Assembly (NCBI RefSeq): GCF_003966335.1
Contig: NZ_CP034549.1
Span: 1,950,001-1,982,000, forward strand
Reading direction: 5' to 3'
DNA length: 32,000 nt
Source of the DNA: Nonlabens ponticola
Lineage (GTDB): Bacteria > Bacteroidota > Bacteroidia > Flavobacteriales > Flavobacteriaceae
Part shown: positions 1,183-22,670 of the stretch, piece by piece
How the letters are laid out: each line of letters begins with the position of its first letter
Position numbering within the stretch: position 1 is the first letter of the stretch
Made by a program: the position numbers and the translations under genes
Notes under the pieces: model-generated
Told to the model about the DNA's origin: nothing
Databases searched by the model: none
Seen by the model: the letters and a program-made list of their open reading frames with translations, nothing else

Positions 1183-1186
1183 CTAG

Positions 1187-6178: not shown

Positions 6179-6982
6179 ATGTGTATGACCAGATTACTTG
6201 TTGTGATGTTGTTGTTGGGTTCTGCTTTCGCGAAAGCGCAATCCACACCAGCCGACTCTACAAAAACACCAGACCTAGAATACTACTATGTAGATGGTGA
6301 CAGTGTGAGTTCTATCGAGCTTGAAGAAGTCCTGTTAATACCAGAGCTCAAATTTACCAGTCGATATGAACGAGTACGCTATGCCATCCTACAGCGAAAG
6401 ACCAAAAAAGTATGGCCATACGCAAAGCTTGCCGCAGAACGTCTAACAGAACTTGACCGCCGACTCGCAACGATAGAAAACAAGCGCGATCAAAGGCGAT
6501 ATGCCAAAATGGTAGAGAATTATATAGAAGATGAATTCACAGCAGAGCTTAAAAAACTAACTACTACCGAAGGTCAAATACTCATCAAACTAATTCACAG
6601 GCAAACTGGTGATAACGCCTTTGAGCTTATCAAAAGACTGCGCAGTGGCTGGAGTGCTTTTTGGTTTCATAATACCGCAAAGGTTTTTGATATCTCGCTC
6701 AAAGAGGAATTCAAACCCACTACGATTGTAGAAGATTTTTACATCGAAGATATTTTACAGCAGCAATTTAAACGCGAGACCTTAGAAAGTCAGTCGCCAG
6801 CCATTCCCATAGATTACTATACTGGTCGCAGCCTATGGAAAGAATATGAACGCAACCTACCGGCAGATTATGACTCCATCAATCTTGCCAAACGATCTGC
6901 ACGCATCGCAGAATATCGCGCCAAGAAACGAAAGGAAGCGCAAAAAGCTAGCCGTCGTAAAAAACGTAGGAATAAGAATTAA
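6179..6982 (+). CDS. DUF4294 domain-containing secreted protein
   Basis: 267-aa ORF with a signal peptide ending SAFAKAQ and a basic C-terminal tail. The core ...RVRYAILQRKTKKVWPYAKLAAERL...TTTEGQILIKLIHRQTG... resembles Bacteroidota DUF4294 from memory. Confidence 0.8.
   Translation: MCMTRLLVVMLLLGSAFAKAQSTPADSTKTPDLEYYYVDGDSVSSIELEEVLLIPELKFTSRYERVRYAILQRKTKKVWPYAKLAAERLTELDRRLATIENKRDQRRYAKMVENYIEDEFTAELKKLTTTEGQILIKLIHRQTGDNAFELIKRLRSGWSAFWFHNTAKVFDISLKEEFKPTTIVEDFYIEDILQQQFKRETLESQSPAIPIDYYTGRSLWKEYERNLPADYDSINLAKRSARIAEYRAKKRKEAQKASRRKKRRNKN
6224..6237. repeat. iterated palindrome GCTTTCGCGAAAGC, copy 1 (inside a CDS, reads AFAKA)
   Basis: Exact 14-mer, codon-aligned in the DUF4294 gene, encoding the signal-peptide end SAFAKAQ. 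Confidence 0.95.
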
Positions 6983-8217
6983 TCCAATTCATTCATCGCC
7001 TCGATGCGCTGTTGCAAACTAGGATGTGAGTAGTGCAGGAAAACGTAGGCTGGATGTGGCGTGAGATTACTCAAGCTGGTTTTTGACAATGTTTTTAATG
7101 CATTGATAAGCGGTTGTGATTTATACGTACGACTTGCATACTCATCGGCCTGGTATTCAAATTTTCTGGATAACCAGCTCATCACGATTCCTGTGATGGT
7201 AGAAATAGGCGAGTAGAGCAGTCCAAAGGCCACCAAACCTACATGAAAAGATGGTGTAGCCACTCCTAATGCTTGGGATAACGTCTCGCTATCAACGACT
7301 AATGAGAAAATCCAAAGGGTAAATCCAGTAGTTAGCGTGCTAGCAATCAAATTATAGATGATATGTTTTTTCTTGTAATGACCTACTTCATGAGCAAGCA
7401 CTGCCACGATCTCATCATGGGATAGTTTGTCAATTAATGTATCATATAAAGTCACGCGTTTCTCACTGCCGAATCCGCTGAAATAAGCATTGGCCTTTGT
7501 CGATCGTTTGCTGCCATCTATCACAAAAATTTTATCCAGTTGAAAACCAACGCTACTCGCATAAGTATTGATAGAGCTTTTTAGATCTCCTTCGCTCAAC
7601 GGCACTTGTTTATTAAATAGCGGTACAATCAATCGTGCATAAAACATATTCATGATCATGGTAATCATGAAGGCTAATATCCAAACATACCACCAGAAGT
7701 TATCGCCAGCCCATCGATAGCATAGTATTACCAGCGCAAGAAAGCCACCGCCTAAAATTGCCGTGAGCAACCAACCCTTGATTTTGTCTATAATAAATAG
7801 TTTTTTGGTTGTCTTATTAAAACCAAATCGTTCCTCTATAACAAAAGTGCCGACATAGGAGAATGGCAAAGAAATGAGTTCACCAGCAGCCGCGATAATT
7901 CCAAAAAAAATGATCGCTACTAAAATATCGTTATCAGTATAAGTTCTTGCCCATGAATCTACAATCGCAAAGCCATCAACCATGAGGAAAATCAAAATTG
8001 CCAGAAAGGAAAACGAACTTGAAATGGTACCAAATCTAAAATTGACCCTTTTGTAATCTTGCGATTTACGGTATTCCTCTTCATCATAGACATCACTTAG
8101 AGAGTCTGGAACAGGTTTAGAATACCACGTATAATTAAGATAGCTCAATGTACGTTCCAGAGCAAAGTCAAAGACCAGAATCCCAATGATGATGTAGAAC
8201 AAAGTTTGTGCTTCCAT
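6979..8217 (-). CDS. M48 family metallopeptidase (Ste24/HtpX-like)
   Basis: 412-aa multi-TM ORF with the zinc motif LAHEVGHYKKKH (HExxH). Confidence 0.9.
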   Translation of the reverse strand: MEAQTLFYIIIGILVFDFALERTLSYLNYTWYSKPVPDSLSDVYDEEEYRKSQDYKRVNFRFGTISSSFSFLAILIFLMVDGFAIVDSWARTYTDNDILVAIIFFGIIAAAGELISLPFSYVGTFVIEERFGFNKTTKKLFIIDKIKGWLLTAILGGGFLALVILCYRWAGDNFWWYVWILAFMITMIMNMFYARLIVPLFNKQVPLSEGDLKSSINTYASSVGFQLDKIFVIDGSKRSTKANAYFSGFGSEKRVTLYDTLIDKLSHDEIVAVLAHEVGHYKKKHIIYNLIASTLTTGFTLWIFSLVVDSETLSQALGVATPSFHVGLVAFGLLYSPISTITGIVMSWLSRKFEYQADEYASRTYKSQPLINALKTLSKTSLSNLTPHPAYVFLHYSHPSLQQRIEAMNELD

Positions 8218-8291
8218 GGGGCTAAAGTACTATTATCTAATAGTGTACTTGAAACAATTGCTTTGAACTTATTAACGCCACTCAGGATGTT

Positions 8292-9110
8292 TCAGAAACC
8301 TCGCTGGCGTGCTGCTTCAAATAACAAAATTGCCGCACTTACTGATACGTTCATGCTATCAATGGCACCGCGCATAGGTATGATCACATTTTGCACCGCA
8401 GCATCTCGCATCTCTTGTGATAGTCCTGTAGCTTCTGTTCCTACCGCAATGGCAGTGCTGCTGGTATAATTGATCAAATCATAGCGTTCACTAGCCTGCA
8501 ACGTGGCAGCATATAAATTGATGTTTTGCTCCTTCAAAAACAAGATGGTTTCTGTGGTCGATGATGTGATTACAGGAACGGTGAATACACAACCTACACT
8601 TGACCTGATGACATTAGGATTATAAAGATCTGTAATGGAATTTGTAATGATCACGGCATCTACTTTTGCAGCGTCTGCAGTACGCAATAGCGCTCCTAAG
8701 TTGCCTGGTTTCTCTGGCGATTCTGCAATAAGTATGAGTGGATTGGTATCTAATTGTAATGAGGATAATTGTTGGGATTTTGCTTTCGCGAAAGCAATAC
8801 AACCTTCAGTACCGCTGCGATAGGCGAGCTTCTCATAGACCTCACTGCTCACCGCGATAACCTCGGTAGATTCCTTAATATTGATGTGCTTTTCAATTTG
8901 ATCTCTGGTAAATTCACTACTTTCTAGGAATACCTCACCACAAATTAGTAACTGCGTCAACTCAAAGCCACCATCTAGCGCTAATTGTATTTCCCTTTTT
9001 CCTTCAACGAGAAACAAGCCCTCTTTTTTGCGAGCTTTACTCTTGCGCTGCAGCTGTTCCGCAAGACGTATGGTGGCATTATGTGGGCTCGAGATGAATT
9101 TCAAAAGCAA
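8292..9110 (-). CDS. TrmH/SpoU family RNA 2'-O-methyltransferase
   Basis: 272-aa ORF with a TTG start in the track. Contains ...LFLVEGKREI..., PEKPGNLGALLRTADAAKVDAVI and NVSVSAAILLFE, typical of the SpoU methylase family. Confidence 0.85.
   Translation of the reverse strand: MLLKFISSPHNATIRLAEQLQRKSKARKKEGLFLVEGKREIQLALDGGFELTQLLICGEVFLESSEFTRDQIEKHINIKESTEVIAVSSEVYEKLAYRSGTEGCIAFAKAKSQQLSSLQLDTNPLILIAESPEKPGNLGALLRTADAAKVDAVIITNSITDLYNPNVIRSSVGCVFTVPVITSSTTETILFLKEQNINLYAATLQASERYDLINYTSSTAIAVGTEATGLSQEMRDAAVQNVIIPMRGAIDSMNVSVSAAILLFEAARQRGF
8780..8797. repeat. iterated palindrome copy 2 (core 8782..8795; perfect palindrome extends to 18 bp TTGCTTTCGCGAAAGCAA; inside a CDS, reads AFAKA)
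   Basis: Exact core, codon-aligned on the minus strand in the TrmH-family gene (CIAFAKAKS). Confidence 0.95.
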
Positions 9111-9125
9111 GATATTGCTGTGTGA

Positions 9126-9419
9126 TTAAGCCGTTTGAACATCGTTAAGATACCTTTCCTTAACCCAAAAGGTTCCAAAAGGCACTACGCTCATCAATAC
9201 GACGATGATGGTAGTCTTGAAATTCCACTTGAGCAATTGACTTACTACAATCGCCAGTGCTACATAAGCCAAGAACAAAAATCCATGAGCCATACCTACC
9301 ACAGTATTAGGCAAACCTATGCCGCCTAAATATTTTAAGGGCATGGTGACGAATAGCAATAGCAAAAAGGAGTAACCTTCTGCAATGGATAAATATTTAA
9401 AAATCTTAACTACTTGCAT
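9126..9419 (-). CDS. DUF3817 domain-containing membrane protein
   Basis: 97-aa ORF with 3 TM helices. ...AEGYSFLLLLFVTMPLKYL...GMAHGFLFLAYV... matches DUF3817 from memory. Overlaps the upstream MscS gene by 14 nt. Confidence 0.75.
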   Translation of the reverse strand: MQVVKIFKYLSIAEGYSFLLLLFVTMPLKYLGGIGLPNTVVGMAHGFLFLAYVALAIVVSQLLKWNFKTTIIVVLMSVVPFGTFWVKERYLNDVQTA

Positions 9420-10329
9420 CTTTCTTCAGGTCTTTCATAGACAAAGGTATGTCAGATTCACGACCATAGAGCTTGATTTCCTGAATATCTGCAGGTAGAT
9501 AGAAGCCTTCCTTCATAAGCTCCATCTTGACGTGTCCTATCACGCGTCCACGAGTCTCAGTCGCGATGCGGCCAAAATCCTTGGTATCTACCCAAAAATA
9601 GACCTTGAGGTTTACAGTACTAGTGGCAAGTTCATCTTCAGCTACAAAATTGACATGTTCATCATCACTTATGACCTTACTATCGTTTTTTAAGGCGCGC
9701 ATAATGCATTCCTTGGCTAGATTTATATCGTCTTCATAATCAACACCTACTAGGAAGTCCCAACGATAGAAACCATCCTCGGTAAAATTGGTCACTGGCT
9801 GTGTAATCACATCACTATTAGGTATATAAACATCCTTGCCATCAAATGTCTTGAGTTTAGTATATCTAAATTCCAAGGTTTTTACCTTACCAAAGTTATC
9901 GCCTATCTCAACGGTGTCGTTCACATTGAAGGGTCTATTGAAACTTAAAATGATACCTGCGATAAAATTTTGCCCAACGTCTTTAAAAGCAAAACCCAAT
10001 ACCACGGCACTCGCACCAGCTGCGGCCAGTATTCCTGCACTAACGTCACCCAATCCTGCAGCACGCAATGAGAGCATGATAAAGACAATAATGATAGAGA
10101 AACGTATGGCCTTACCCAAAAACCTACTCATTAATGGATCGTTGGTTGTACTGCGTACGCGTTTACGAACAAATGAACCTATAAGGCCAGCGATGAGAAC
10201 ACCTATAACTATGATAGCGATACCAAAACCCAACCGCGGTAGGAACTCGACAAAACTCTCATAAAATGTTTGCGCGCTCGTGGTAATTTCTTCAGTAAAT
10301 TCAGTAGTTGTGCTAGCTTGATCCTGCAT
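9406..10329 (-). CDS. mechanosensitive ion channel family protein (MscS-like)
   Basis: 307-aa ORF with N-terminal TM helices, then ...NFIAGIILSFNRPFNVNDTVEIGDNFGKVKTLEFRYTKLKTFDGKDVYIPNSDV..., the MscS beta-domain signature. Confidence 0.85.
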   Translation of the reverse strand: MQDQASTTTEFTEEITTSAQTFYESFVEFLPRLGFGIAIIVIGVLIAGLIGSFVRKRVRSTTNDPLMSRFLGKAIRFSIIIVFIMLSLRAAGLGDVSAGILAAAGASAVVLGFAFKDVGQNFIAGIILSFNRPFNVNDTVEIGDNFGKVKTLEFRYTKLKTFDGKDVYIPNSDVITQPVTNFTEDGFYRWDFLVGVDYEDDINLAKECIMRALKNDSKVISDDEHVNFVAEDELATSTVNLKVYFWVDTKDFGRIATETRGRVIGHVKMELMKEGFYLPADIQEIKLYGRESDIPLSMKDLKKDASS

Positions 10330-10417
10330 TTGTATTGATTTGAGGTAAATATAAATTGCTGCTTTGCATACTTATGTTAAGCTTACATAAAAAAGTCAGG
10401 GCTTATTGTTCAGCACT

Positions 10418-10425
10418 TATTTTTG
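10418..10425 (+). promoter_or_regulatory. candidate -7 promoter box TATTTTTG abutting the start codon
   Basis: Exact TAnnTTTG match 4 nt upstream of the ATG at 10430 (TATTTTTG-TGAC-ATG). Confidence 0.4.
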
Positions 10426-10429
10426 TGAC

Positions 10430-11680
10430 ATGCAAAACAATTTATCTACAATTACAATCATAGGTGCTGGCGTGAGCGGCCTGGCAGCTGCGATGACGCT
10501 GCATAAAGCTGGTTATAGCTCGACAATATTAGAAGCCGGTAGTCAGGTAGGCGGCCGCGTGCAAACCGATTATGATAATTCCATGATACTGGATCACGGT
10601 TTTCAGGTATTGCTGGATGCTTATCCAGCATCTATGGAGTTTTTAGATTATGATAAACTACAACTCATCAATTTTAAGCCTGGTGCGGTCCTATTTAATA
10701 ACGGTAAGAAAGAAAAGGTTGGCGACCCGACTAGAGATGCGAGTTTTCTAATTTATACTGCTATTGCTAGTATAGGAAGTGTGCAGGATAAATGGTTGAT
10801 GTTTCAGCTTTCGCGAAAGCTGAAAAAGAAATCTCTTCAAAACATATTTGCATCACCCGAACTAACCACACAGCAGTATCTAGAGGATTATGGGTTCTCT
10901 CAAAAGATTATTGACAAGTTCTTTAGACCTTTCTATGCTGGAATTTTTCTCGAGGACAAACTATCTACAAGCAGCCGCATGTTTGAGTTTGTTTTCAAGA
11001 TGTTTGCGATAGGAAATGCCACGTTACCAGCAAAAGGAATACAGGCTATTCCTGAACAGATGGCTAGCGCACTGCCAGACAGTTCTATAAAATTGAGTAC
11101 CACTGTAGAACGTGTTGTGGGCAGTCAAATAACGCTCGCTGGTGGTGAGCAATTGGAGTCAGATTACACCATTATTGCCTCACAGGCAGATCAACTTGTA
11201 CCTAATTTACCCATATCAAATCTGCCATGGCATCAGGTAAGTGTACTGTATTTTGAGACCACATATGAAGGTTTGGGCAATCCAATGATAGGTCTAATTG
11301 CAGATGAAGATGCACTATGTAATAATTTTCATTTTTTGCAAGATGTATTCCCAAATCATAACAGTGTGCTGAGTGTTAGCGTGGTGAAAAAACATGATTT
11401 AAGCGATACTGAGCTAGAAAGGAAGGCAAGAGAAGAAATGAAGCGGCATGCACAAATTGACTGCGGCAAGTTGATTAAATGCCAGCATATAAAAAAGGCG
11501 TTACCCAAATTGGGAAGCATTAATTACAGCATGGAACCTACAGAGACGCAACTAACTGAACATGTTTATCTTGCAGGCGACCATTTAAGTAATGGTTCAC
11601 TCAACGCTGCAATGCTTAATGGTAAAGCCGCAGCGCAAGCCATCATTGAGAAAATTGAAAATAGAGTAGTGGTTGGCTAG
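10430..11680 (+). CDS. NAD(P)/FAD-dependent oxidoreductase (amine oxidase / protoporphyrinogen oxidase-like fold)
   Basis: ORF track 10406..11680 (TTG). The ATG at 10430 gives MQNNLSTITIIGAGVSGLAAAMTLHKAGYSSTILEAGSQVGGR (GxGxxG dinucleotide-binding fold). Confidence 0.85.
   Translation: MQNNLSTITIIGAGVSGLAAAMTLHKAGYSSTILEAGSQVGGRVQTDYDNSMILDHGFQVLLDAYPASMEFLDYDKLQLINFKPGAVLFNNGKKEKVGDPTRDASFLIYTAIASIGSVQDKWLMFQLSRKLKKKSLQNIFASPELTTQQYLEDYGFSQKIIDKFFRPFYAGIFLEDKLSTSSRMFEFVFKMFAIGNATLPAKGIQAIPEQMASALPDSSIKLSTTVERVVGSQITLAGGEQLESDYTIIASQADQLVPNLPISNLPWHQVSVLYFETTYEGLGNPMIGLIADEDALCNNFHFLQDVFPNHNSVLSVSVVKKHDLSDTELERKAREEMKRHAQIDCGKLIKCQHIKKALPKLGSINYSMEPTETQLTEHVYLAGDHLSNGSLNAAMLNGKAAAQAIIEKIENRVVVG
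10802..10825. repeat. iterated palindrome copy 3 (core 10807..10820; perfect palindrome extends to 24 bp TTTCAGCTTTCGCGAAAGCTGAAA; inside a CDS, reads LSRK)
   Basis: Read directly. It lies in the oxidoreductase CDS and encodes FQLSRKLK. Confidence 0.95.
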
Positions 11681-13237: not shown

Positions 13238-13675
13238 ATGAAAAACATTACGATTCTACTCGCATTATTATTTATTGCCACTTCTGCATCATGTCAAAAA
13301 TCTAAGAAGAGCGAAGTTCCTCAAGCCGTACAAGCAAATTTCATGTCAAAGTATCCAGGAGAAAATGATCCGGACTGGAAACTAGATGATCACGGATATT
13401 GGGAATCGCACTTTAAAATTGAGGGCATTAAATACCGTGCAGACTTTGAAGCAAATGGTGCTTGGGTCGAGACGGAAACTAGTATTTCTAAAAAGGATTT
13501 ACCAGAAGCCATTAAAAGCGTCATCAAAGACAAGTACGCAGACCGCAAAATTACAGAAGTTGAGTTGGTTCAACACTTCAGTAAAGGGCAGTTTTACGAT
13601 GTGGAGTTCAAACAAAAAGGTAAAAATATGGATGTCGAGTTTAGGAGTGATGGCTCCATTATTGAGGTCAACTAA
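13238..13675 (+). CDS. PepSY-like (DUF2874-type) periplasmic protein
   Basis: ORF track 13181..13675. The ATG at 13238 gives signal peptide MKNITILLALLFIATSASCQ. There are two repeats of the P..V...F...YP / LP..I...I...Y pattern typical of PepSY-like proteins. Confidence 0.75.
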   Translation: MKNITILLALLFIATSASCQKSKKSEVPQAVQANFMSKYPGENDPDWKLDDHGYWESHFKIEGIKYRADFEANGAWVETETSISKKDLPEAIKSVIKDKYADRKITEVELVQHFSKGQFYDVEFKQKGKNMDVEFRSDGSIIEVN

Positions 13676-13688
13676 TTTGATGACTTAA

Positions 13689-14870
13689 TTATTTTTCACC
13701 TTTAGAAACAATTTTAATAGGTAGGCGCACGGTTATCGTCGTACCCTTTTTATTTCCAGTTATAAAAGTGATGTCACCTTCATGAAGCTCTGCAATCATT
13801 TTTGCGATATAAGTACCTAAACCAGTACCACGCTCCTTACCCGAAGTCACGTATTTACTAAAAAAGTTCTCGCGCACATCTTTAGGAATATTCCCTTTAT
13901 TAGTGATGTGGACTAAAAGCACATCATCAGTATTCAACTTGATTTTAATACGCTCCTTTTTAGGCGATGCCTCGATAGCATTGCTTAATAAGTTTTGAAA
14001 CAGGTGATCTAGATAAAATTTATCTGCTTTGATTCTCAGCGATGTTTCACCAGGGATCACTTCTTCGCCATCAAGCTTCATGGTAAGCTTAAGCTTCTTG
14101 CGATTGATAAGATCTTTATAATCCTTAGTCATCGTTTCTAAGGATTGGATAAGATCAAATTCTTCAATTTTTGGTTCATAATCACCACGCTCCATATCGG
14201 CATAATCCTTGGCACTGGTGAGCAATTGTAGCGTATCGATCCCTATGTGTTTGATGGTCTCGATCCATTTCATTTGCTTCTCATCCACATCAGTCTTTGC
14301 AAGAATATCAGCTACTGACACAATAGTTGCTAGACGATTGCGCATGTCATGTTCAGCAAGTCTATGTGCAAGATCTTGAGTTTCTAATTTGCGTTCTAGA
14401 ATTTCTATTGACGTCTCAAGTCGAGCAATGGTCCTGTGCAGCTCATCAGCCCTTACTACAAGAGTCATCTTTCTTATATCTTCCTCATCATTTTCTGTAT
14501 CGTATTCCTTGAGAAAGGCAGCGTTTGTGATGATCTCAAATTTCTCTTTGGACTTACCGTAAACAGTCCATCGACCAGTCAATTCATATTCATCCTTAAG
14601 AAATCTCTCATGCAGATTTACCAGTTGATCCTGGGATTCATCAGGCACCACCATGGTAAACGGGTTCCCTATAAGTTCCTCACGAGTATAACCATAGATA
14701 TCACAGTAGGTAGCATTAACATCAGTAAAATGACCGTTAGCATTAGTAACACAAATACCTATGGGCATGTGTTGAAAAACCTTGAAGGACAATTCATGAT
14801 CGTGTTCAAATAGACCCTTAATAGTATTGAGTCCTTGCTGGGCATTATCTTTCTGCTGAGAAACAGACAT
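13689..14870 (-). CDS. PAS domain-containing sensor histidine kinase
   Basis: 393-aa ORF. PAS-like N-terminus (...GICVTNANGHFTDVNATYCDIYGYTREELIGNPF...), H-box LAEHDMRNRLATI, HATPase motifs LLSNAIEAS and GTGLGTYIAK. No TM segment is evident. Confidence 0.85.
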   Translation of the reverse strand: MSVSQQKDNAQQGLNTIKGLFEHDHELSFKVFQHMPIGICVTNANGHFTDVNATYCDIYGYTREELIGNPFTMVVPDESQDQLVNLHERFLKDEYELTGRWTVYGKSKEKFEIITNAAFLKEYDTENDEEDIRKMTLVVRADELHRTIARLETSIEILERKLETQDLAHRLAEHDMRNRLATIVSVADILAKTDVDEKQMKWIETIKHIGIDTLQLLTSAKDYADMERGDYEPKIEEFDLIQSLETMTKDYKDLINRKKLKLTMKLDGEEVIPGETSLRIKADKFYLDHLFQNLLSNAIEASPKKERIKIKLNTDDVLLVHITNKGNIPKDVRENFFSKYVTSGKERGTGLGTYIAKMIAELHEGDITFITGNKKGTTITVRLPIKIVSKGEK

Positions 14871-14903
14871 AACCTTGTTTAAGTTTTGAGGTTAAAGTAT
14901 AAA

Positions 14904-14911
14904 CAAATTTA
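14904..14911 (-). promoter_or_regulatory. candidate -7 promoter box TAAATTTG
   Basis: Exact TAnnTTTG match on the minus strand, about 33 nt upstream of the PAS kinase ATG at 14870. Confidence 0.35.
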
Positions 14912-14969
14912 AAATATTTTTAATAATAAAAAGTTGTTTCCTACATTTTGAGGCGCATTCTTACAATTG

Positions 14970-14991
14970 TTACGCTTTCGCGAAAGCGTAA
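14970..14991. repeat. iterated palindrome copy 4 (core 14974..14987; perfect 22-bp palindrome TTACGCTTTCGCGAAAGCGTAA; intergenic)
   Basis: Read directly. It lies in the divergent region between the PAS kinase and the arg operon. Confidence 0.95.
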
Positions 14992-15037
14992 TCTCCACTA
15001 AAACCTAGCATTTAAAATTATCCTAAGTTTTTTTTCT

Positions 15038-15045
15038 TACATTTG
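15038..15045 (+). promoter_or_regulatory. candidate arg-operon -7 promoter box TACATTTG
   Basis: This is the only exact plus-strand TAnnTTTG match in the 430-nt region upstream of the arg cluster. It sits 3 nt before the ATG of mini-ORF 1. Confidence 0.35.
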
Positions 15046-15048
15046 ACT

Positions 15049-15102
15049 ATGCTTACAGTAGAATTATACACCAGAATTGAAAACCGCCGTCGCTGTCGCT
15101 AG
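15049..15102 (+). CDS. candidate arginine-rich leader peptide 1 (17 aa: MLTVELYTRIENRRRCR)
   Basis: Hand-translated mini-ORF ATG..TAG. The last five codons are CGC CGT CGC TGT CGC. It lies about 250 nt upstream of the first arg-cluster gene. Confidence 0.4.
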   Translation: MLTVELYTRIENRRRCR

Positions 15103-15146
15103 ACCTCGAGTGCATTGCCGTTTAATCAATTGTAAAATTTCTACCT

Positions 15147-15218
15147 ATGTTTTTCCTTCCATATTTATCGAGCAATAGTAATCCAAGAATGGTTATGTTG
15201 TTGCGCCGCCGCCGTTAA
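15147..15218 (+). CDS. candidate arginine-rich leader peptide 2 (23 aa: MFFLPYLSSNSNPRMVMLLRRRR; shorter forms from the ATG at 15189 or 15195)
   Basis: Hand-translated mini-ORF ending CGC CGC CGC CGT TAA, 83 nt upstream of the GNAT/arg operon ATG at 15302. Confidence 0.4.
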   Translation: MFFLPYLSSNSNPRMVMLLRRRR

Positions 15219-15301
15219 AGGCTGTTAATTTTTTACAGAACTTTAGGTGTGTCCAGTTCTCTTTTCGTTAAACATTTTACTCACTTATTAATTCTCTTAC
15301 A

Positions 15302-15925
15302 ATGAATATTGTAATTGCAAATGAATCGCATTTCAAATATGCTTATATTATATGCGAGACCATCAACAAATCAGCGGTCGAGCGTGACACTGGTATCGCA
15401 AAGCGTACCCCAGAATATATTACTACCAAGATGCAAAACGGGAATGCCGTCATCGCTCTTGATAATCAAAAGTTCACGGGTTTTTGCTACATAGAGCGAT
15501 GGGATCATGGCAAGTATGTAGCCAATTCTGGATTGATCGTACATCACGATTATCGTGGTAAAGGATATGCAAAACTGATCAAGAAAAAAATCTTTGAACT
15601 ATCACGCGAGAAATTCCCTGATGCCAAAATCTTTGGGATTACCACGGGCTTACCGGTCATGAAAATCAATTATGAGCTAGGATATCAACCCACTACATTT
15701 TCTGAGTTGACTACAGACGATGCATTTTGGAAAGGCTGTCAAACGTGCAAAAACTTTGATGTACTTACACGTACCAATAGAAAGATGTGCTTGTGCACTG
15801 GTATGATATACGATCCAGCTAGAAGCATTCCCAAACCAGAAAAAAAGGTCGTGACAAAATCCCTGCATGACCGTTTACAAAACATAAAGAAATCCATTCT
15901 CTTTAAAAAAGATCCTACCAAATGA
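15302..15925 (+). CDS. GNAT family N-acyltransferase, first gene of the arg cluster (candidate glutamate N-acyltransferase)
   Basis: 207-aa ORF with a GNAT core (...LIVHHDYRGKGYAKLIKKKIFELS...). Its stop overlaps the argG start (ATGA at 15922..15925). Confidence 0.8.
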   Translation: MNIVIANESHFKYAYIICETINKSAVERDTGIAKRTPEYITTKMQNGNAVIALDNQKFTGFCYIERWDHGKYVANSGLIVHHDYRGKGYAKLIKKKIFELSREKFPDAKIFGITTGLPVMKINYELGYQPTTFSELTTDDAFWKGCQTCKNFDVLTRTNRKMCLCTGMIYDPARSIPKPEKKVVTKSLHDRLQNIKKSILFKKDPTK

Positions 15926-17109
15926 AAAAATTAGTTCTCGCATATAGCGGTGGTCTTGACACATCCTATTGTGCTGTTCACCTATCAAAAGATCTGGGCT
16001 ATGAAGTCCATGCCGTTAGTGTCAATACAGGTGGTTTTACAATCGATGAAATCGCGCACATAGAATCCAATGCGTATAAAATGGGAGTAAAGACCTATGA
16101 AAATATTGACGCCGTTGAGACTTTCTATGATAAAATCGTTAAGTATTTGATTTTTGGCAATGTGCTTAAAAACAATACGTATCCATTATCAGTAAGTTCT
16201 GAGCGTATCATTCAAGCCATTGAAATCATTAATTATGCTAATGAAATTGGGGCCACGGCGATTGCCCACGGTTCTACCGGTGCAGGAAATGACCAGGTGC
16301 GATTTGATATGATCTTTCAAACTTTTGCACCAGATATGGAGATCATCACTCCAATACGTGATCAAAAGTTATCGCGACAGCAAGAAATTGAATACCTCAA
16401 GTTAAATGGTGTCGACATGAATTGGGAAAAGTCTCAGTATAGTGTCAACAAAGGTTTGTGGGGAACCAGCGTCGGCGGTGCTGAGACGCTCACTTCAAAC
16501 AAGTCATTACCAGAATCTGCTTATCCATCGCAACTGCAGGAAAAGGAACCCAAACAAATAGCATTGAGTTTCACTAATGGCGAACTCACAGCTATTGATG
16601 ACCACGTTGGCGAATCTCATCATCTCATTGAGCAGCTCAACGATGTCGCATCAGCTTATGCAATAGGACGTGATATTCATGTGGGCGATACCATTGTCGG
16701 TATTAAAGGTAGAGTAGGCTTTGAGGCTGCTGCTTCACTGATTCTGGTAAAAGCCCATCATTTGCTGGAAAAGCATACCTTGAGTAAATGGCAACTGCAA
16801 CACAAGGAATACTTATCCAGTTTCTATGGGATGCATTTGCATGAAGGTCTTTATCTTGATCCGGTCATGCGCAACATTGAGGCGTTTTTACAAAGCAGCC
16901 AGAAAAGTGTCACAGGAAAAGTATTTGTTACCTTAAAACCTTATCAGTTTTTATTGGATGGCATTGAATCAGACTTTGATTTGATGAACGCTGGATATGG
17001 AACCTACGGTGAGGAAAATAAGGCATGGAGCGCTGATGATGCCAAGGGTTTTATAAAGATCTACAGCAATGCGCAAAAGATCTATCAACAAGTAAATAAG
17101 GGCTCATGA
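15922..17109 (+). CDS. argG: argininosuccinate synthase
   Basis: 395-aa ORF. MKKLVLAYSGGLDTS (N-type ATP pyrophosphatase P-loop), ...AHGSTGAGNDQVRF... Confidence 0.95.
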   Translation: MKKLVLAYSGGLDTSYCAVHLSKDLGYEVHAVSVNTGGFTIDEIAHIESNAYKMGVKTYENIDAVETFYDKIVKYLIFGNVLKNNTYPLSVSSERIIQAIEIINYANEIGATAIAHGSTGAGNDQVRFDMIFQTFAPDMEIITPIRDQKLSRQQEIEYLKLNGVDMNWEKSQYSVNKGLWGTSVGGAETLTSNKSLPESAYPSQLQEKEPKQIALSFTNGELTAIDDHVGESHHLIEQLNDVASAYAIGRDIHVGDTIVGIKGRVGFEAAASLILVKAHHLLEKHTLSKWQLQHKEYLSSFYGMHLHEGLYLDPVMRNIEAFLQSSQKSVTGKVFVTLKPYQFLLDGIESDFDLMNAGYGTYGEENKAWSADDAKGFIKIYSNAQKIYQQVNKGS

Positions 17110-18083
17110 TTAAGGCAGGAATTATAGGTGGTAGCGGTTTTACTGCTGGTGAACTCATAAGGTTGTTGACCCATCATCCAGCAGTAACGATTGATTTTGT
17201 CTTCACAACTTCAAAATCAGGACAATCTATAAGTGATGTCCATCAAGATCTTTATGGTATAATCGACTTAGCGTTTACCGATCAAGTGAACCTTAACGTA
17301 GATGTGGTTTTTCTATGTCTGGGCCATGGTAATAGTTCTAAATTTTTGGAGACACATCATTTCTCAAACCAGACTATTATAATTGATTTGAGCAACGATT
17401 TCAGGTTAGCGGCAGACTCAGTTTTTCAAGACAGAAAATTTGTTTATGGACTACCTGAATTAAATAGTGAAGAAATTGAGAATTCAAAGAATATTGCAAA
17501 TCCAGGTTGTTTTGCCACGGCAATACAGCAAGCGATATTACCACTGGCCGTAAATGAAATAATCAAAACAGATGTACATGTCAACGCTGTAACAGGTGCC
17601 ACCGGTGCTGGAGCGAGCTTGTCTGATACCACAAGTTTCGTTTGGCGCGACAATAACTTCAGTAACTATAAGGCTTTTAATCATCAGCATCTAGATGAAA
17701 TCTATCAATCTATAACTCAACTGCAATCTGCTTTTGAGCAGAAGGTTCATTTTATTCCTAATCGTGGTAATTTCTCCCGAGGGATTTTTGCCACGGTCTA
17801 TACTCAATATGATGGTACGTTAGAAGATGCGCAAGGGGTTTATAAGAAATATTATAAGCATGCAGTTTTCACGCATGTGAGCAACAAGCCTATACATTTA
17901 AAACAAGTTGTGAATACAAATAATTGCATTCTTCATTTAGAAAAACACGGCGACCAATTGCTGATTACCAGCGCGATCGATAATTTATTAAAAGGTGCGT
18001 CAGGTCAAGCTGTTCATAATATGAATCTCGTTTTTGGACTTGAGGAGAAACTAGGTCTTGACCTTAAAGCAAGCTATTTCTAA
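17106..18083 (+). CDS. argC: N-acyl-gamma-glutamyl-phosphate reductase
   Basis: 325-aa ORF. MIKAGIIGGSGFTAGELIRLL, active-site region NPGCFATA, C-terminal DNLLKGASGQAVHNMN. The start overlaps the argG stop (ATGA). Confidence 0.95.
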   Translation: MIKAGIIGGSGFTAGELIRLLTHHPAVTIDFVFTTSKSGQSISDVHQDLYGIIDLAFTDQVNLNVDVVFLCLGHGNSSKFLETHHFSNQTIIIDLSNDFRLAADSVFQDRKFVYGLPELNSEEIENSKNIANPGCFATAIQQAILPLAVNEIIKTDVHVNAVTGATGAGASLSDTTSFVWRDNNFSNYKAFNHQHLDEIYQSITQLQSAFEQKVHFIPNRGNFSRGIFATVYTQYDGTLEDAQGVYKKYYKHAVFTHVSNKPIHLKQVVNTNNCILHLEKHGDQLLITSAIDNLLKGASGQAVHNMNLVFGLEEKLGLDLKASYF

Positions 18084-19222
18084 TGGGACTTTTCAATGTA
18101 TATCCGTTATTTGACATCACGCCAGTTCGTGCGCAAGATGTCTATATCTATGATAAAGACGATAACGAGTACCTAGATCTTTATGGCGGTCATGCTGTAA
18201 TTTCCATAGGTCACTCGCATCCTACGTATGTAAAAAGACTTTCTGATCAACTCGACAAGATTGCTTTTTACAGTAATTCAATTCAAAATCCATTGCAGCA
18301 GCAAATGGCTGATAAGTTGGCACGCCTTTCTGGTTGCCATGATTATGATTTATTCTTATGTAATTCTGGAGCTGAGGCTAATGAAAATGCGCTTAAGGTC
18401 GCATCCTTTGCAACAGGCAAAAAGAAAGTGATTGCTTTTAACAACAGTTTTCATGGCCGGACCAGTGCGGCAGTTGCAGTTACTGATAACCCCAAAATTG
18501 TAGCGCCTATCAATGCACAGCAGGAAGTCATATTTTGTGAATTGGGTGATGTTAATGCCGTAGAAAAAGCGCTAGAAACAGGTGATGTTTGTTGCATTAT
18601 CATCGAGACGATTCAAGGCGTTGGTGGACTCGATGAGGCTACTACTAGCTTTTTTGATTTGATAGTTACGCTTTCGCGAAAGCATAATTGTCTCATCATC
18701 GCAGACGAGGTACAGTCTGGATTTGGTAGGACAGGAGATTTCTTTGCCTTTCAAAAACACAAATGGACACCTGACTTAATACCAATTGCCAAAGGAATGG
18801 GCAACGGATTTCCCGTTGGTGGTGTGTTGATTCATCATGATATCAAAGCAAGTTTTGGGATGCTGGGAACGACTTTTGGCGGCAATCATCTGGCTTGTAC
18901 TGCGGTAAACGCAGTGCTAGATGTGATAGAAAGCGAAAACCTAATGCAAAAAGCAAACGATACTTCTACTTACTTTCTTGACCAAATCAAAGAGATTAAA
19001 GAAATCAAACGAGTGAAGGGTCGTGGCTTGATGTTGGGATTAGAATTTGATTTCCCAATCGCAGAGCTACGTAAAGATTTGATTCTTAATCATAGGATTT
19101 TTACAGGGAATTCCAAAAACCCTAATCTAATACGCATATTACCGTCATTGACGGTACAACAACATCATTTAGATCATTTTGTAACAGCCTTGAAGAAAGC
19201 CTTAAAAACTAGAACCTCATGA
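18083..19222 (+). CDS. argD: acyl-ornithine aminotransferase (class III PLP aminotransferase)
   Basis: 379-aa ORF. ...LCNSGAEANENALK..., ...IADEVQSGFGRTG..., ...AKGMGNGFPVGG.... The TAATG overlap with argC suggests translational coupling. Confidence 0.9.
   Translation: MGLFNVYPLFDITPVRAQDVYIYDKDDNEYLDLYGGHAVISIGHSHPTYVKRLSDQLDKIAFYSNSIQNPLQQQMADKLARLSGCHDYDLFLCNSGAEANENALKVASFATGKKKVIAFNNSFHGRTSAAVAVTDNPKIVAPINAQQEVIFCELGDVNAVEKALETGDVCCIIIETIQGVGGLDEATTSFFDLIVTLSRKHNCLIIADEVQSGFGRTGDFFAFQKHKWTPDLIPIAKGMGNGFPVGGVLIHHDIKASFGMLGTTFGGNHLACTAVNAVLDVIESENLMQKANDTSTYFLDQIKEIKEIKRVKGRGLMLGLEFDFPIAELRKDLILNHRIFTGNSKNPNLIRILPSLTVQQHHLDHFVTALKKALKTRTS
18670..18683. repeat. iterated palindrome copy 5 (inside argD, reads LSRK; extended flanks GTTAC...ATAAT match the intergenic subfamily with one mismatch)
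   Basis: Exact 14-mer. The context GTTACGCTTTCGCGAAAGCATAATT encodes VTLSRKHN. Confidence 0.95.
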
Positions 19223-20157
19223 ATCATTATAGCGACTTAAAAGATCTTAAGGATTTTCAAGCGACCGTTGATCTGGCCTTAGAACTTAAAAACGATCCGT
19301 ATGCTTATGAAGACCTAGGCAAGCGCAAAACTATTGCGATGGTTTTCTTCAATAACAGTTTGCGCACAAGATTAAGTACAGAAAAAGCCGCACGCAACCT
19401 AGGAATGGATGTGATGGTACTTAATGTATCAAACTCATGGAATCTAGAATTTGAAGATGGCACCATCATGAATCTTGACACGGCAGAGCATATCAAAGAA
19501 GCCACACAGGTCATCGCTCAATATGCGGATATTATTGCGGTACGTGCCTTTGCTAATTTGAAAGACAAAATTGAAGACCAACAGGAAAAGATATTGAACG
19601 CCTTCATCAAGAACGCTGGTGTGCCGATAGTCAATATGGAAAGTGCGTTATCACATCCTTTGCAAGGATTGACCGATGCGATTACCATTAAAGAGCAAGA
19701 ATTGAAGAAAAGACCAAAGGTAGTCTTATCGTGGGCTCCGCATCCACGATCGTTGCCGCATGCGGTAGCAAATAGTTTTATCACCGCAATGAAAATGAGT
19801 GATGTCGATTTAGTAATAACAAATCCGCGCGGATATGACCTCGATCCAGAAATCACGGCCGGTACTGAAATCAACAATGACCAGATAGAAGCCTGTAAAA
19901 ATGCCGATATTATATATGTCAAGAATTGGAGCAGTTTTGACAGCTATGGTAAAGTCATACAGCAAGATATCGATTGGATGATGACTCAAGAAAAATTAGG
20001 CCATGCGAAATTCATGCATTGTCTACCGGTGAGGCGCAACGTGGTGGTAGAAGATGCTGTCATTGACAGTGATCAATCAGTAGTGATTGAGCAAGCTGGA
20101 AATAGGACGTTTGCGGCGCAGGCTGTTTTGAAGTTGCTGCTTAAAGACTTAAACTAA
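19219..20157 (+). CDS. argF: N-acyl-L-ornithine carbamoyltransferase (Bacteroides argF'-type; probably N-succinylornithine-specific)
   Basis: 312-aa ORF. FFNNSLRTRLSTEKAA (carbamoyl-phosphate motif variant of the AOTCase/SOTCase clade) and HCLPVRRN. Colinear with the Bacteroides fragilis ArgF' sequence as I remember it. Confidence 0.9.
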   Translation: MNHYSDLKDLKDFQATVDLALELKNDPYAYEDLGKRKTIAMVFFNNSLRTRLSTEKAARNLGMDVMVLNVSNSWNLEFEDGTIMNLDTAEHIKEATQVIAQYADIIAVRAFANLKDKIEDQQEKILNAFIKNAGVPIVNMESALSHPLQGLTDAITIKEQELKKRPKVVLSWAPHPRSLPHAVANSFITAMKMSDVDLVITNPRGYDLDPEITAGTEINNDQIEACKNADIIYVKNWSSFDSYGKVIQQDIDWMMTQEKLGHAKFMHCLPVRRNVVVEDAVIDSDQSVVIEQAGNRTFAAQAVLKLLLKDLN

Positions 20158-20212
20158 TACAACAGGTGCTATAATTTAAAATACTTAAAATTAAATAGTT
20201 AATTAAAAGAGA

Positions 20213-20731
20213 TTGAAGATATTTGAAACAGATCGATTGGAAGTGAGAAGGCTTAAACAATCTGATGAATTGTATTTCACAGAATTGTTGACGAGTGCCG
20301 TTATCTTGGAAAAAATTCCTGTAAAACCAGCTACAGCAGAAATCGTAAAGGATCGATTTGAAACCTTCCAAAAAATGGAATTATCAGATTTAGGTTCAAC
20401 AAAATGTTTTTGTGCGATTGTGGAGAAAGGAAAGGATGAAGCGATAGGACTTGCATTATTTCTTATTGAGAATAATGAACAGGAACTGGGTTATCGATTT
20501 AGACCAGATTATTGGAGAAAAGGATATGGCACCGAGGTCGCAAAAGGTATGCTGGACTACTATTTTAATGTGTTAAGAGTGTCTAAGGTTATTGCAAATG
20601 CAAACGTTGAAAATCCGGGTTCCATAAGGATCTTGAGCAAATTGATGAATTTTGAAAAGGAGTTTTTCAATGTTGAATTGAATTGCACAGATCGCAGTTA
20701 CTCAATAACAAAAACCGAATGGAGTGATTAA
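20213..20731 (+). CDS. GNAT family N-acetyltransferase (RimJ/RimL-like)
   Basis: 172-aa ORF with a TTG start. (M)KIFETDRLEVRRL... and ...ELGYRFRPDYWRKGYGTEVAKGMLDYYF... are typical of Acetyltransf_3-type GNATs. It sits between argF' and argB. Confidence 0.8.
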   Translation: MKIFETDRLEVRRLKQSDELYFTELLTSAVILEKIPVKPATAEIVKDRFETFQKMELSDLGSTKCFCAIVEKGKDEAIGLALFLIENNEQELGYRFRPDYWRKGYGTEVAKGMLDYYFNVLRVSKVIANANVENPGSIRILSKLMNFEKEFFNVELNCTDRSYSITKTEWSD

Positions 20732-20769
20732 TTCTAATTATCACGTCTCACGACTGACAAAATATCAAA

Positions 20770-21615
20770 ATGAACGATCTTAAAATTATAAAAATAGGAG
20801 GTAAGCTCATCGATGATGAGGCTATGTTGAATGCTTTTTTAAAAGACTTTGCAGAGATAAAAGAACCAAAAGTACTGATTCATGGCGGTGGTACTATTGC
20901 GTCTCAAATTTCCAACGAGCTAGGAATAACAGTAAAGCAGATTGATGGTCGCCGCATTACCGACGATGCGACGCTAGACATCATCACGATGGCCTATGCA
21001 GGCAAGATCAACAAGAATATTGTTGCCAGATTGCAAGCTTTGGATTGCAATGCGTTAGGACTTACAGGCGCCGATGGTAACAGCATAACCTCTAAAATAA
21101 GAGACAAAAGTCCTATTGATTTTGGCCATGTGGGTGATCCAGTAAAGGTCAATACGACTTTTATTCAAAGTCTGCTGGATCAAGAAATCACCTCAGTTTT
21201 TTGCGCTATTACACACGATGGTGCTGGTCAATTACTCAATACTAATGCAGATACCGTTGCGGCAGTTTTAAGTTCCGCTTTCGCGCTCCGCAATGAGCCT
21301 GCCGGAGAGCGTCGTCCTGAGTTTGTCGAAGGGCGCCGTCCTAAGCCTGTTGAAGAAAAAGCATACAGAACAAAGCTCTATTACTGCTTTGAAAAAGCTG
21401 GAGTATTGAGAAATATAAACGATGAATCAAGTTTGATTGAGCACATAAACTTCAAACAATACCAGCAATTAAAAAATGATGGAGTAATTGCAGATGGAAT
21501 GTTACCCAAATTGCAAAACAGTTTTGAAGCCCTTGAAAATGGTGTATCAAGCGTGCACATAGGGTTGCCATCTATGATAAACAGCAATATTAATCATACA
21601 ACCTTGAGTTTATGA
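20770..21615 (+). CDS. argB: acyl-glutamate kinase carrying an in-frame repeat insertion
   Basis: 281-aa ORF. IIKIGGKLIDDE, VLIHGGG, LNTNADT, GMLPKL. It is roughly 20-25 aa longer than the Bacteroidota ArgB proteins I remember. Confidence 0.9.
   Translation: MNDLKIIKIGGKLIDDEAMLNAFLKDFAEIKEPKVLIHGGGTIASQISNELGITVKQIDGRRITDDATLDIITMAYAGKINKNIVARLQALDCNALGLTGADGNSITSKIRDKSPIDFGHVGDPVKVNTTFIQSLLDQEITSVFCAITHDGAGQLLNTNADTVAAVLSSAFALRNEPAGERRPEFVEGRRPKPVEEKAYRTKLYYCFEKAGVLRNINDESSLIEHINFKQYQQLKNDGVIADGMLPKLQNSFEALENGVSSVHIGLPSMINSNINHTTLSL
21310..21357 (+). repeat. tandem 24-nt direct repeat inside argB (CGTCGTCCTGAGTTTGTCGAAGGG / CGCCGTCCTAAGCCTGTTGAAGAA, 17 of 24 identical)
   Basis: Aligned by hand. 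The units encode RRPEFVEG / RRPKPVEE in frame. Confidence 0.8.
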
Positions 21616-22670
21616 ATTTACTGACACAAGAAGCGATTGAATTGCTCAAGAGTTTGATACAGACACCATCATTTTCAGAGGAAGAAGATAAAACCGCAGA
21701 TTTAATTGCTGATTGGTTGATAAACCATCAGGTAGAAGTGAAGCGAGACAGAAACAACATATGGGCTACCAATAAGCATTTTGAAGAAGGTAAACCTACG
21801 CTATTGCTCAATTCGCACCACGATACCGTAAAACCCAACAAGGCCTACACTCGTGACCCATTTACAGCGACTGTAGAAAATGATAGGTTGTATGGCCTAG
21901 GAAGCAATGATGCAGGCGGTTGTCTAGTGAGCTTGCTGGCGACTTTTGTTCATTTTTATGACCACCAACATTTGAATTACAATCTCGTCATCGTCGCCAG
22001 CGCCGAAGAGGAAAATAGCGGCACCAATGGCTTATGCAGCATGTTGGATATCATTCCGCATATTGATGTGGCAGTCGTTGGAGAACCTACACAGATGCAT
22101 CTTGCGGTAGCAGAAAAAGGGTTGGTGGTCTTTGATGCCGTCGTTACAGGAACAGCAAGTCATGCGGCACATCCTAATGATGATAATGCGATTTACAATA
22201 CCATTCCTGTGTTAGAATGGTTTAAGAATTTCGCTTTCGCGAAAGCGTCACTTGTATTAGGTCCAGTAAAAATGACGGTCACACAAATCAATGCAGGCGT
22301 CCAGCACAACGCCATACCATCACAGGTAGAATTAGTGATCGATGTGCGCGTTAACGATGCTTACTCAAATCAGGAAATAGCCGATATCTTAACAGCAGAA
22401 TCACCGTGCGATAGCATCATACCACGTAGTCTGCGGTTAAATTCATCGAGCATTCCCTTGGATCATGATATTGTCAAGGCAGGCATTGCTTTAGGCAGAG
22501 AAACATACGGCTCACCAACGCTATCTGACCAGGCCGTGCTAACCTGTCCATCGGTAAAATTGGGACCAGGTTTAAGCCAGCGATCACACACTGCAGATGA
22601 GTTCATTTATGTAAGCGAGATCGTGGAAGGAATAGAGATTTATAGGGAGATATTAGAAAACATCTTGTAA
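21612..22670 (+). CDS. argE: M20 family metallohydrolase (ArgE-like acyl-ornithine/acyl-citrulline deacylase)
   Basis: 352-aa ORF. ...LLLNSHHDTVKP..., ...GSNDAGG..., ...SAEEENSG.... The start overlaps the argB stop (ATGA). Confidence 0.85.
   Translation: MNLLTQEAIELLKSLIQTPSFSEEEDKTADLIADWLINHQVEVKRDRNNIWATNKHFEEGKPTLLLNSHHDTVKPNKAYTRDPFTATVENDRLYGLGSNDAGGCLVSLLATFVHFYDHQHLNYNLVIVASAEEENSGTNGLCSMLDIIPHIDVAVVGEPTQMHLAVAEKGLVVFDAVVTGTASHAAHPNDDNAIYNTIPVLEWFKNFAFAKASLVLGPVKMTVTQINAGVQHNAIPSQVELVIDVRVNDAYSNQEIADILTAESPCDSIIPRSLRLNSSSIPLDHDIVKAGIALGRETYGSPTLSDQAVLTCPSVKLGPGLSQRSHTADEFIYVSEIVEGIEIYREILENIL
22232..22247. repeat. iterated palindrome copy 6 (core 22233..22246; 16-bp palindrome; inside argE, reads AFAKA)
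   Basis: Exact core, codon-aligned, encoding NFAFAKAS. Confidence 0.95.

Follow-up and report, generated by a model that had tools for sequence, protein, structure and literature searches.

A lineage-specific, highly iterated palindrome of Nonlabens that is spread by substitution, filtered at the protein level and evenly spaced

Iterated words and the palindrome of Nonlabens

Through iterated words such as uptake sequences, Chi and the highly iterated palindrome HIP1 one gains a rare view of machinery that reads a whole chromosome. Here we describe a word of this kind, the 14-nt palindrome GCTTTCGCGAAAGC, in a stretch of 32,000 nucleotides from Nonlabens ponticola (Bacteroidota, Flavobacteriaceae; contig NZ_CP034549.1, positions 1,950,001 to 1,982,000; the whole stretch is called the window in the following) and in related genomes. 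We are confident that the word is a lineage-specific highly iterated palindrome which is kept exact, spreads by substitution, is filtered by the encoded proteins and is evenly spaced. Its function is a more tentative matter: a sequence-biased system of DNA uptake or recombination might use the word for recognition, which appears quite possible to us, though short of probable.

HIP1 (GCGATCGC) of the cyanobacteria is like the word a perfect palindrome which is vastly over-represented in coding as well as non-coding DNA, causes no indels, was spread by substitution, is kept at orthologous sites and shows a quasi-periodic spacing. It is under purifying selection, was long without known function and has recently been found to enhance transformation (bioRxiv 10.64898/2026.06.24.733823). 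The word differs from HIP1 in its sequence, in its occurrence in Bacteroidota and in its core of 14 nt (16-22 with the flanks) instead of 8 nt. It is also about 3-10 times sparser, it ranges over one genus instead of a phylum, and nothing points to a role of nested short methylase sites.

The DNA uptake sequences (DUS) of Neisseria (GCCGTCTGAA) and the uptake signal sequences (USS) of the Pasteurellaceae (AAGTGCGGT) share with the word that they are exact and lineage-specific with few degenerate copies, that they use biased frames at tolerant positions and leave an imprint on the proteome, and that they are enriched between genes. They are also evenly spaced on the scale of recombination tracts. 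Foreign DNA is poor in them; of the word no copy was seen in a virulent phage, and several other phage contigs carry 3-7. For both it has been described that frames are biased, that sites are tolerant and that the encoded peptides are doubled (Findlay and Redfield, PMC2817400); for DUS the spacing corresponds to how long conversion tracts are, and certain new DUS have diverged too far to be accounted for by point mutation (PMC2397512). In contrast to the word, a palindrome of 14-22 bp that is found about once per 3.3 kb, DUS and USS are asymmetric, 9-12 nt long and occur about once per kb. Their hosts are proven to be competent, in Neisseria with a known receptor. Neisseria DUS moreover often form inverted pairs acting as terminators, while no copy of the word lies at a terminator-like site. 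We know of no uptake word in the Flavobacteriaceae. A member of that family, Riemerella, is naturally competent with a preference for self-DNA (PMC7965970).

Two other kinds of repeated palindromes have to be compared. The sites parS, NBS (Noc-binding site), SBS (SlmA-binding site) and matS of the proteins ParB, Noc, SlmA and MatP are palindromes of 12-16 bp with dimeric readers and are scattered along the chromosome, as is the word. However, they number tens of copies instead of hundreds, are regionally biased and have another arm spacing, and in contrast to the word no genome-wide reshaping of coding sequences is known for them. Repetitive extragenic palindromes (REPs), bacterial interspersed mosaic elements (BIMEs) and Rickettsia palindromic elements (RPEs) are likewise short palindromic repeats scattered in the genome, and RPEs lie in frame inside genes. 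REPs lie between genes, are imperfect and clustered and fold into stable hairpins, whereas the copies of the word avoid each other. RPEs are insertions of 100-150 nt which lengthen the protein, whereas the word replaces codons at constant length.

In a search of the literature the exact 14-mer was found in no paper, and queries that paired palindromes or iterated words with Nonlabens, Flavobacteria or Bacteroidetes returned nothing relevant. That an iterated word can spread by substitution is already established for HIP1 and the uptake sequences. New are the element itself, the other phylum, the longer word (14-22 bp), the regular spacing and the examples of codon tuning and turnover. It is possible, though less likely than not, that this is the first sequence-specific 'self-DNA word' in Bacteroidota, with a length of 16-22 bp, copies about 3 kb apart, compensatory turnover and a putative dimeric reader that serves uptake, recombination or chromosome organisation. 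The word is unusually long, exact and very evenly spaced, and both its cost and its benefit are measurable, as hundreds of proteins receive particular peptides and synonymous sites are frozen. It offers a test of self-biased DNA uptake in marine bacteria as well as an independent case for comparison with the still unsettled function of HIP1, and the 22-mer used as bait would be a handle on a new DNA-recognition system in these abundant organisms.

Copies of the word and their origin by substitution

The window contains eight exact copies of GCTTTCGCGAAAGC, where 0.07 are expected and none of 100 dinucleotide-preserving shuffles reaches eight. They start at positions 6224, 8782, 10807, 14974, 18670, 22233, 25437 and 28559. 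No further site was found in the window at one or two mismatches, and three mismatches yield merely two more hits, which is background level. Every occurrence of the inner 8-, 10- and 12-mers in the window falls within a full copy. Chance or composition as origin of the copies is ruled out by the shuffles and by the Markov background.

For comparison with other genomes loci of about 20-21 kb per genome were used instead of whole genomes. Exact copies number four in 21 kb of an uncultured Nonlabens sp. (L001), seven each in N. marinus (L125) and Nonlabens sp. Hel1_33_55 (L126), five in N. spongiae (L127), six each in N. agnitus (L128) and N. xiamenensis (L129), and five, three and four in three further lineages of metagenome-assembled genomes (MAGs; L130, L131 and L136, respectively). 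All Nonlabens-type genomes sampled thus carry the word at a similar density, with roughly one copy per 3.3 kb. None is present in the locus of a Psychroserpens-labelled MAG (L134), which has a syntenic arg operon and an ArgE with 79% identity, nor in four Robiginitalea loci. The proteins of the window are closest to those of Nonlabens (TrmH 70-73%, DUF4294 up to 77%, ArgE 80% identity), and no relative above about 80% protein identity was found in the databases. A scan of metagenome contigs with the word in its 16-mer form revealed 104 low-GC loci (674 kb) with 171 copies of the 14-mer; 16 high-GC hits contain a single copy each, as is the case for chance matches.

Five of the eight copies in the window lie within genes. 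The host genes were confirmed by Pfam, those of the ArgD and ArgE type being part of an arginine-biosynthesis cluster. An earlier reading of the letters, here called the sequence-only reading, had listed these five coding copies and had regarded them as substitutions which overwrote compatible native codons. All its coordinates and peptides were reproduced by frame arithmetic on the open reading frames (ORFs) and by a scripted check. A sixth coding copy, the ninth overall, had been overlooked; it is split (in ArgB, see below).

For four of the five genes the alignments with orthologs are clear. The SpoU/TrmH-family methylase gene (ORF 8292-9110, minus strand) carries its copy at 8782..8795 in frame 0, where it encodes IAFAKAKS in the linker between two domains. 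The site is ungapped in all of 120 orthologs; AFAKAK of Nonlabens corresponds to A[VI]AK[AST]K in Flavobacterium and Salegentibacter, and in the deeper lineage L131 the DNA is GCC ATC GTC ACA AGC, of equal length. The copy is exact in 7/7 genomes compared at the DNA level, and the flanking synonymous sites vary. The flavin amine oxidase gene (ORF 10406-11680, plus strand) encodes FQLSRKLK by a copy in frame 2 (10807..10820) which was found in five species. Of 80 homologs none is gapped here, and many already read LSRxLK or LNRALK. The copy at 18670..18683 lies in frame 2 of the gene for an ArgD-type class III aminotransferase (ORF 18083-19222, plus strand; peptide VTLSRKHN) and is also exact in L001. 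The protein shows no gap against the structures PDB 2eh6 and 2e54, and the same holds for the outgroup DNA, which encodes LCKQY, LCDAH or LCRQY at equal length (AAA CTC TGT AAA CAA TAC in the outgroup versus xxG CTT TCG CGA AAG CAT in Nonlabens). The gene of an ArgE-type M20 hydrolase (ORF 21612-22670, plus strand) encodes NFAFAKAS by its copy in frame 0 (22233..22246). Among 120 orthologs none is gapped or has AFAKA. Other Nonlabens read YKFEKGS, which corresponds to eight nucleotide changes in 15 nt and three amino-acid replacements, and on these alignments the copy is a gain specific to the lineage of the window.

The fifth gene encodes a DUF4294 protein (ORF 6179-6982, plus strand) with the copy at 6224..6237 in frame 0, which reads SAFAKAQ at the end of the signal peptide. 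Among 120 proteins listed roughly 60 carry xAFAKAQ, most of them labelled as Nonlabens or unlabelled, and N. marinus has a version with one mismatch (AFAEA). In other genera the signal peptide ends in ..FAQ or ..SAQ and is 2-3 residues shorter, and because this region varies in length anyway, substitution and a small indel cannot be told apart.

The claim of the sequence-only reading that the host proteins contain no extra segment therefore holds for TrmH, amine oxidase, ArgD and ArgE and is undecidable for DUF4294. A clean insertion of 12-15 nt is seen at none of the four copies that could be aligned. The replaced peptides resemble the new ones, as GFAKH of the outgroup became AFAKA in the ArgB of L001, LCKQ became LSRK in ArgD and A[VI]AKA became AFAKA in TrmH. 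The proposal that a process at the DNA level overwrote compatible codons agrees with these alignments, with the tuning of an M48 peptidase gene and with the frozen synonymous sites described below. Taking this evidence as a whole, there is little doubt that coding copies arise by nucleotide substitution where the peptide is, or can become, AFAKA, FRES or LSRK.

The remaining three copies are intergenic. One, in the spacer between the arg operon and a divergent gene for a histidine kinase, is part of a perfect palindrome of 22 bp (TTACGCTTTCGCGAAAGCGTAA, 14970..14991, core 14974-14987), with an orthologous copy in L001. The copy at 25437..25450 is located 28 nt past the stop codon of an EamA transporter gene, and the corresponding spacer of L001 holds a copy with one mismatch (GCTTTCGCGTAAGC). 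The third, at 28559..28572, is found between the genes for a dienelactone hydrolase (stop near 28612) and an M28 peptidase, both on the minus strand. It falls within an ORF solely if an upstream TTG is taken as start; since a normal start followed by a signal peptide (MNKLATT.., near 28503), the probable one of the M28 peptidase, lies downstream, we regard this copy as intergenic.

The 14-mer is the invariant core of a longer palindrome of 16-22 bp with the consensus TTTC-GCTTTCGCGAAAGC-GAAA. In the 55 copies of the genome loci the base before the core is C in 85% of the half-sites and the next three outward are T in 53-76%; the full 16-mer is present in 41 of the 55. The palindrome extends further in intergenic copies than in coding ones. 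On both strands the upstream flank is rich in T and the downstream flank rich in A, which is the reverse of a terminator, and none of 16 terminator-like sites between 13000 and 30000 coincides with a copy. As single-stranded DNA the 14-mer folds with about -3 kcal/mol, no better than shuffled sequence, and the copy at 14974 is the only one of the window with a clearly stable hairpin (-7.8 kcal/mol). A search of the window with Rfam gave no match, and no tRNA is present in it. A terminator or a structured RNA is rejected on these grounds. With its weak hairpin the word looks like a duplex-DNA site, presumably one that is read by a symmetric dimer.

A different extension, GTTAC-core-GTAAC, recurs in the metagenomic loci L160-L279. 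It would encode AFAKA followed by a TAA stop in frame 0, LRFRESVT in frame 1 and VTLSRKRN in frame 2; some 'coding' calls in short ORFs may therefore be long intergenic palindromes.

Constraint, reading frames and spacing

The persistence of the copies was examined in codon alignments of seven genes from three to seven species, at columns with a conserved degenerate amino acid. Inside the motif 22 of 25 columns have the identical codon in all species, compared with 194 of 1400 (13.9%) outside (Fisher P = 5.5e-16), and the three columns that differ all represent the last codon, of which the third base is no longer part of the 14-mer. Synonymous sites are thus frozen within the word and mostly variable elsewhere in the genes. 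The codon in front of LSRK in the amine oxidase encodes varying residues (Q, S, T, T, S), yet its last base, with which the word begins, is G in every case. The synonymous codons and this fixed G rule out conservation at the protein level as the cause of persistence. In 220 kb from 10 genomes 55 sites are exact, where none is expected, eight have one mismatch and two have two, after which the numbers drop to background (seven versus seven expected at three mismatches, 52 versus 61 expected at four). All 25 AFAKA pentapeptides in ORFs of the sampled loci are encoded by the word, compared with about 0.1 expected from composition.

The gene of an M48 peptidase, which has no copy in the window, serves as a control and offers the clearest case of the word being written over compatible codons. 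Its conserved native LSRK (7161..7174, minus strand) is written there in the ordinary codons TTA TCC AGA AAA (GTTATCCAGAAAAT), six mismatches from the motif. In L131 the same peptide is written CTT TCG CGA AAG C, which is an exact copy, and two other species have CTG TCC AGA AGG or CTT TCC CGA CGG. The site matches the word in 13/14 positions in three species and in 12/14 in one, and where 13 match, the one that does not is the base dictated by the Phe codon that follows. The untuned LSRK of the window has its neighbouring copies at distances of 0.9 and 1.6 kb and hence fits the rule that no copy is made or kept close to another. A further case of compensation, in which copies in TrmH and M48 would exclude each other, is weakened by three species that have both the 13/14 site in M48 and an exact TrmH copy.

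An example of turnover is provided by the arginine genes. ArgB (acetylglutamate kinase) of L001 contains an intact copy, GCC GCT TTC GCG AAA GCG TAC (AAFAKAY), where the outgroup L134 has ATA GGT TTT GCC AAA CAT TTA at equal length. In the window the copy is interrupted and spans 21277..21362, with GCTTTCGCG (GCT TTC GCG, 21277-21285) being separated from AAAGC (21358-21362, read AAA GCA TAC) by an in-frame insertion of 72 nt (21286-21357). The inserted 24 codons (LRNEPAGERRPEFVEGRRPKPVEE) have roughly 60% GC and include an imperfect 12-nt direct repeat (CGTCGTCCTGAG / CGCCGTCCTAAG), and the Pfam domain AA_kinase is split into two stretches. No other match to the insertion was found in the window or in any fetched locus. 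Judged from these alignments the insertion is real, but it sits within a copy and must not be taken for one. The copy in ArgE, specific to the window, lies 956 bp downstream of the destroyed one and looks like its replacement. Together with the untuned LSRK of M48, the loss in ArgB and the gain in ArgE make the turnover consistent with one copy per interval.

The encoded peptides were tallied at 169 distinct metagenomic sites by naive ORF calling, with some short ORFs probably being spurious and the ratios perhaps somewhat distorted by the seeding with the 16-mer. Of these sites 66 are intergenic, 59 are in the AFAKA frame, 25 in the FRES frame and 19 in the LSRK frame. About 60% of the copies are thus coding, and the intergenic share of 39% is a three-fold enrichment over the 13% of sequence that is intergenic (P = 2e-17). 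The distribution of 59:25:19 is not uniform (P = 1.3e-6). The sequence-only reading had stated that just two of the three possible frames are used. This was an effect of the small sample, since five copies miss one of three frames in 38% of cases by chance (P = 0.38), and the third frame is used in relatives; in the genome loci a class I methyltransferase gene of five species encodes R-FRES-D. Its suggestion of a filter at the protein level fared better. Codon preference as source of the frame bias is rejected, as the least used frames have no worse codons and the preferences of the window would favour the FRES frame, for which reason the excess of AFAKA is better explained by tolerance of the peptide. 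One quarter of the AFAKA copies lie within the first 35 residues of their proteins. Signal peptidases cleave after AxA, in Bacteroidetes followed by Q, and AFAKA with a subsequent Q can plausibly serve as such a site. At the three sites with large alignments the variability lies at the 61st, 69th and 91st percentile. Selection on the protein as a filter on where copies persist is therefore supported.

The most striking property of the word, which the sequence-only reading did not mention, is its even spacing. Gaps in the window measure 2.0-4.2 kb with a coefficient of variation (CV) of 0.21 (P = 0.0004 versus uniform placement), and those of L126 measure 2.7-3.7 kb with a CV of 0.11 (P = 6e-5). 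The smallest of 42 gaps in the genome loci has 1777 bp, and pooling them gives a CV of 0.35, these loci sharing part of their orthologous sites and therefore not being independent. In an independent set of 42 metagenomic loci gaps below 1.5 kb make up 13% versus 40% expected (P < 0.0002) and the CV is 0.55 versus 0.86 expected, both beyond all of 5000 simulations.

At the ends of the window, positions 1-6223 and 28573-32000 are without a copy, the first of these gaps being roughly double the usual distance. This is so even though the genes at the window start (MFS and M42) are in synteny with loci in which a copy directly follows the MFS gene (L125 16595, L126 16516).

Possible readers of the word and its occurrence in other DNA

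If the word serves uptake or recombination, a putative dimeric protein of such a pathway (natural transformation) would read it on double-stranded DNA. Fragments with a copy would be inherited preferentially, and mutations that create or restore copies would spread by this molecular drive, while those that damage the host protein would be removed. One copy per imported fragment would be sufficient, and since a second one nearby would gain nothing, the copies would settle at about one per 2-4 kb. In favour of this proposal are the agreement of the word with the traits published for USS, DUS and HIP1 and, as the only indirect support for preferential uptake, the competence of Riemerella with its preference for self-DNA. 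Several points weigh against it. The even spacing is equally expected of a structural site that organises the chromosome, and the known uptake sequences have 9-12 nt, are not palindromic and are three times denser. Genuine phage contigs from IMG/VR with portal, major head, protease, tape-measure and HNH genes (L095, L120, L123, L059, L139, L156 and other loci, 35-42% GC) moreover carry 3-7 copies, which a drive acting purely through chromosomal uptake does not predict unless they are long-resident prophages. Some of these copies lie inside structural genes, with AFAKA in the region of head protease or capsid and LSRK in an HNH gene, and the spacing is less regular. The phages that bear copies may be temperate and long resident in such hosts. 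In the virulent Nonlabens phage P12024S (L133, 35.7 kb) no copy was found even at two mismatches, where about ten are expected at the density of the host; a general mutational bias of the host cell is disfavoured by that result.

The main rival, which we consider rather unlikely, regards each copy as a selected site of a chromosome-organising protein, either a dimeric one with a helix-turn-helix like ParB/Noc, SlmA or MatP, or a nucleoid-associated one. A site would be needed every few kilobases, and the even spacing would itself be the selected property. A perfect palindrome of 14-16 bp with weaker outer positions is typical of dimeric operators, the quasi-regular spacing was seen in two independent samples, orthologous sites are conserved over long times, and the turnover seems compensatory. 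The quasi-periodicity of HIP1 has led others to the same structural idea, and parS (TGTTTCACGTGAAACA) as well as the Noc site (ATTTCCCGGGAAAT) have TTTC...GAAA arms. However, the half-site spacing of the word differs from these two by one base per arm, the known sites occur in tens per genome with regional bias compared with roughly 800-1000 implied here, and no reason is given for the copies in phage contigs. A self-marker for a nuclease or defence system, like Chi for RecBCD/AddAB, would have DNA without the word degraded and DNA in which it recurs regularly spared or repaired; this is quite improbable. It would agree with the even spacing, with the several copies acquired by some phage contigs and their absence from the virulent phage, and with one copy per 3-4 kb, which resembles the density of Chi in E. 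coli. Chi sequences, though, are 5-8 nt long, asymmetric and strand-biased, unlike a palindrome of 14-22 bp, no associated nuclease is known, and residence time in the chromosome explains the phage pattern equally well.

How the copies are made is a question of its own, and a one-step origin by short-patch templated conversion, the 'conversion-like' option of the sequence-only reading, in which for example a nuclease cuts near-cognate sites and repair copies the motif into them, is compatible with any function of the word. The ArgE copy differs from both relatives at 8/15 nt while these differ mutually at three, no excess of sites with 2-4 mismatches is seen as would be expected of intermediates, the flanks share the T-rich/A-rich bias beyond the core, and DUS of recent gain have prompted a comparable argument (PMC2397512). 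Nevertheless we judge conversion improbable: eight changes can accumulate stepwise because the compared species are saturated at synonymous sites, a strong drive makes intermediates short-lived and seldom visible anyway, an identity of 14-22 bp is below the usual minimum for RecA-mediated conversion, and the 13/14 matches of M48 at the limit set by the Phe codon in three species look like optimisation base by base. Very improbable is a ratchet of methyltransferase and mismatch repair around a methylated CGCG or TCGCGA core, as Elhai proposed for HIP1. Both are classical methylase or restriction sites and are contained in the core of the word, and cyanobacterial HIPs co-occur with orphan methyltransferases (PMC4390886). 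Outside the full motif, though, CGCG (311 versus 308 expected) and TCGCGA (30 versus 28) are neither enriched nor avoided, the enrichment exists solely at the level of the whole 14-16-mer, far above the length of a methylase site, and the virulent phage of the same host genus has no copy. A miniature mobile element or inserted repeat landing in frame, similar to REPs, RPEs or miniature inverted-repeat transposable elements (MITEs), is hardly credible. The longer palindromes of the intergenic copies and the 72-nt in-frame insertion associated with one copy would speak for it; that segment, however, is unique and lies inside a copy, four of the five coding copies and ArgB of L001 align without change in length, target duplications are missing, 60% of the copies are coding and the hairpin is weak. 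For the coding copies the insertion of such an element is rejected by the ortholog alignments, in which the empty sites have equal length.

Two of the compared loci have repeats of their own. In the Psychroserpens-like L134 the oligomer TTTCAGAATT is over-represented, occurring five times on one strand only where 0.25 are expected (2971, 3454, 7945, 8661, 16199), and a near-palindrome, (T/A)CTTCGGAAGA, is found five times as well (3808, 10067, 11347, 18781, 18885); TTTCAGAATT and TCTTCGGAAGA are candidate words of that genome. Other Flavobacteriaceae may thus have iterated words of their own. If the self-DNA word of Nonlabens is real and other genera have different words, as the oligomers of L134 hint, this would be a general, overlooked feature of marine Flavobacteriaceae, and lineage-specific words would shape gene flow as well as protein sequences. 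The last 8.5 kb of L136 contain no copy of the palindrome; from about 13500 to 19200 this locus consists of small ORFs and runs of N with the 14-mer AGTGGAAGCGGAGT repeated seven times, which is probably a region of tandem or dispersed repeats.

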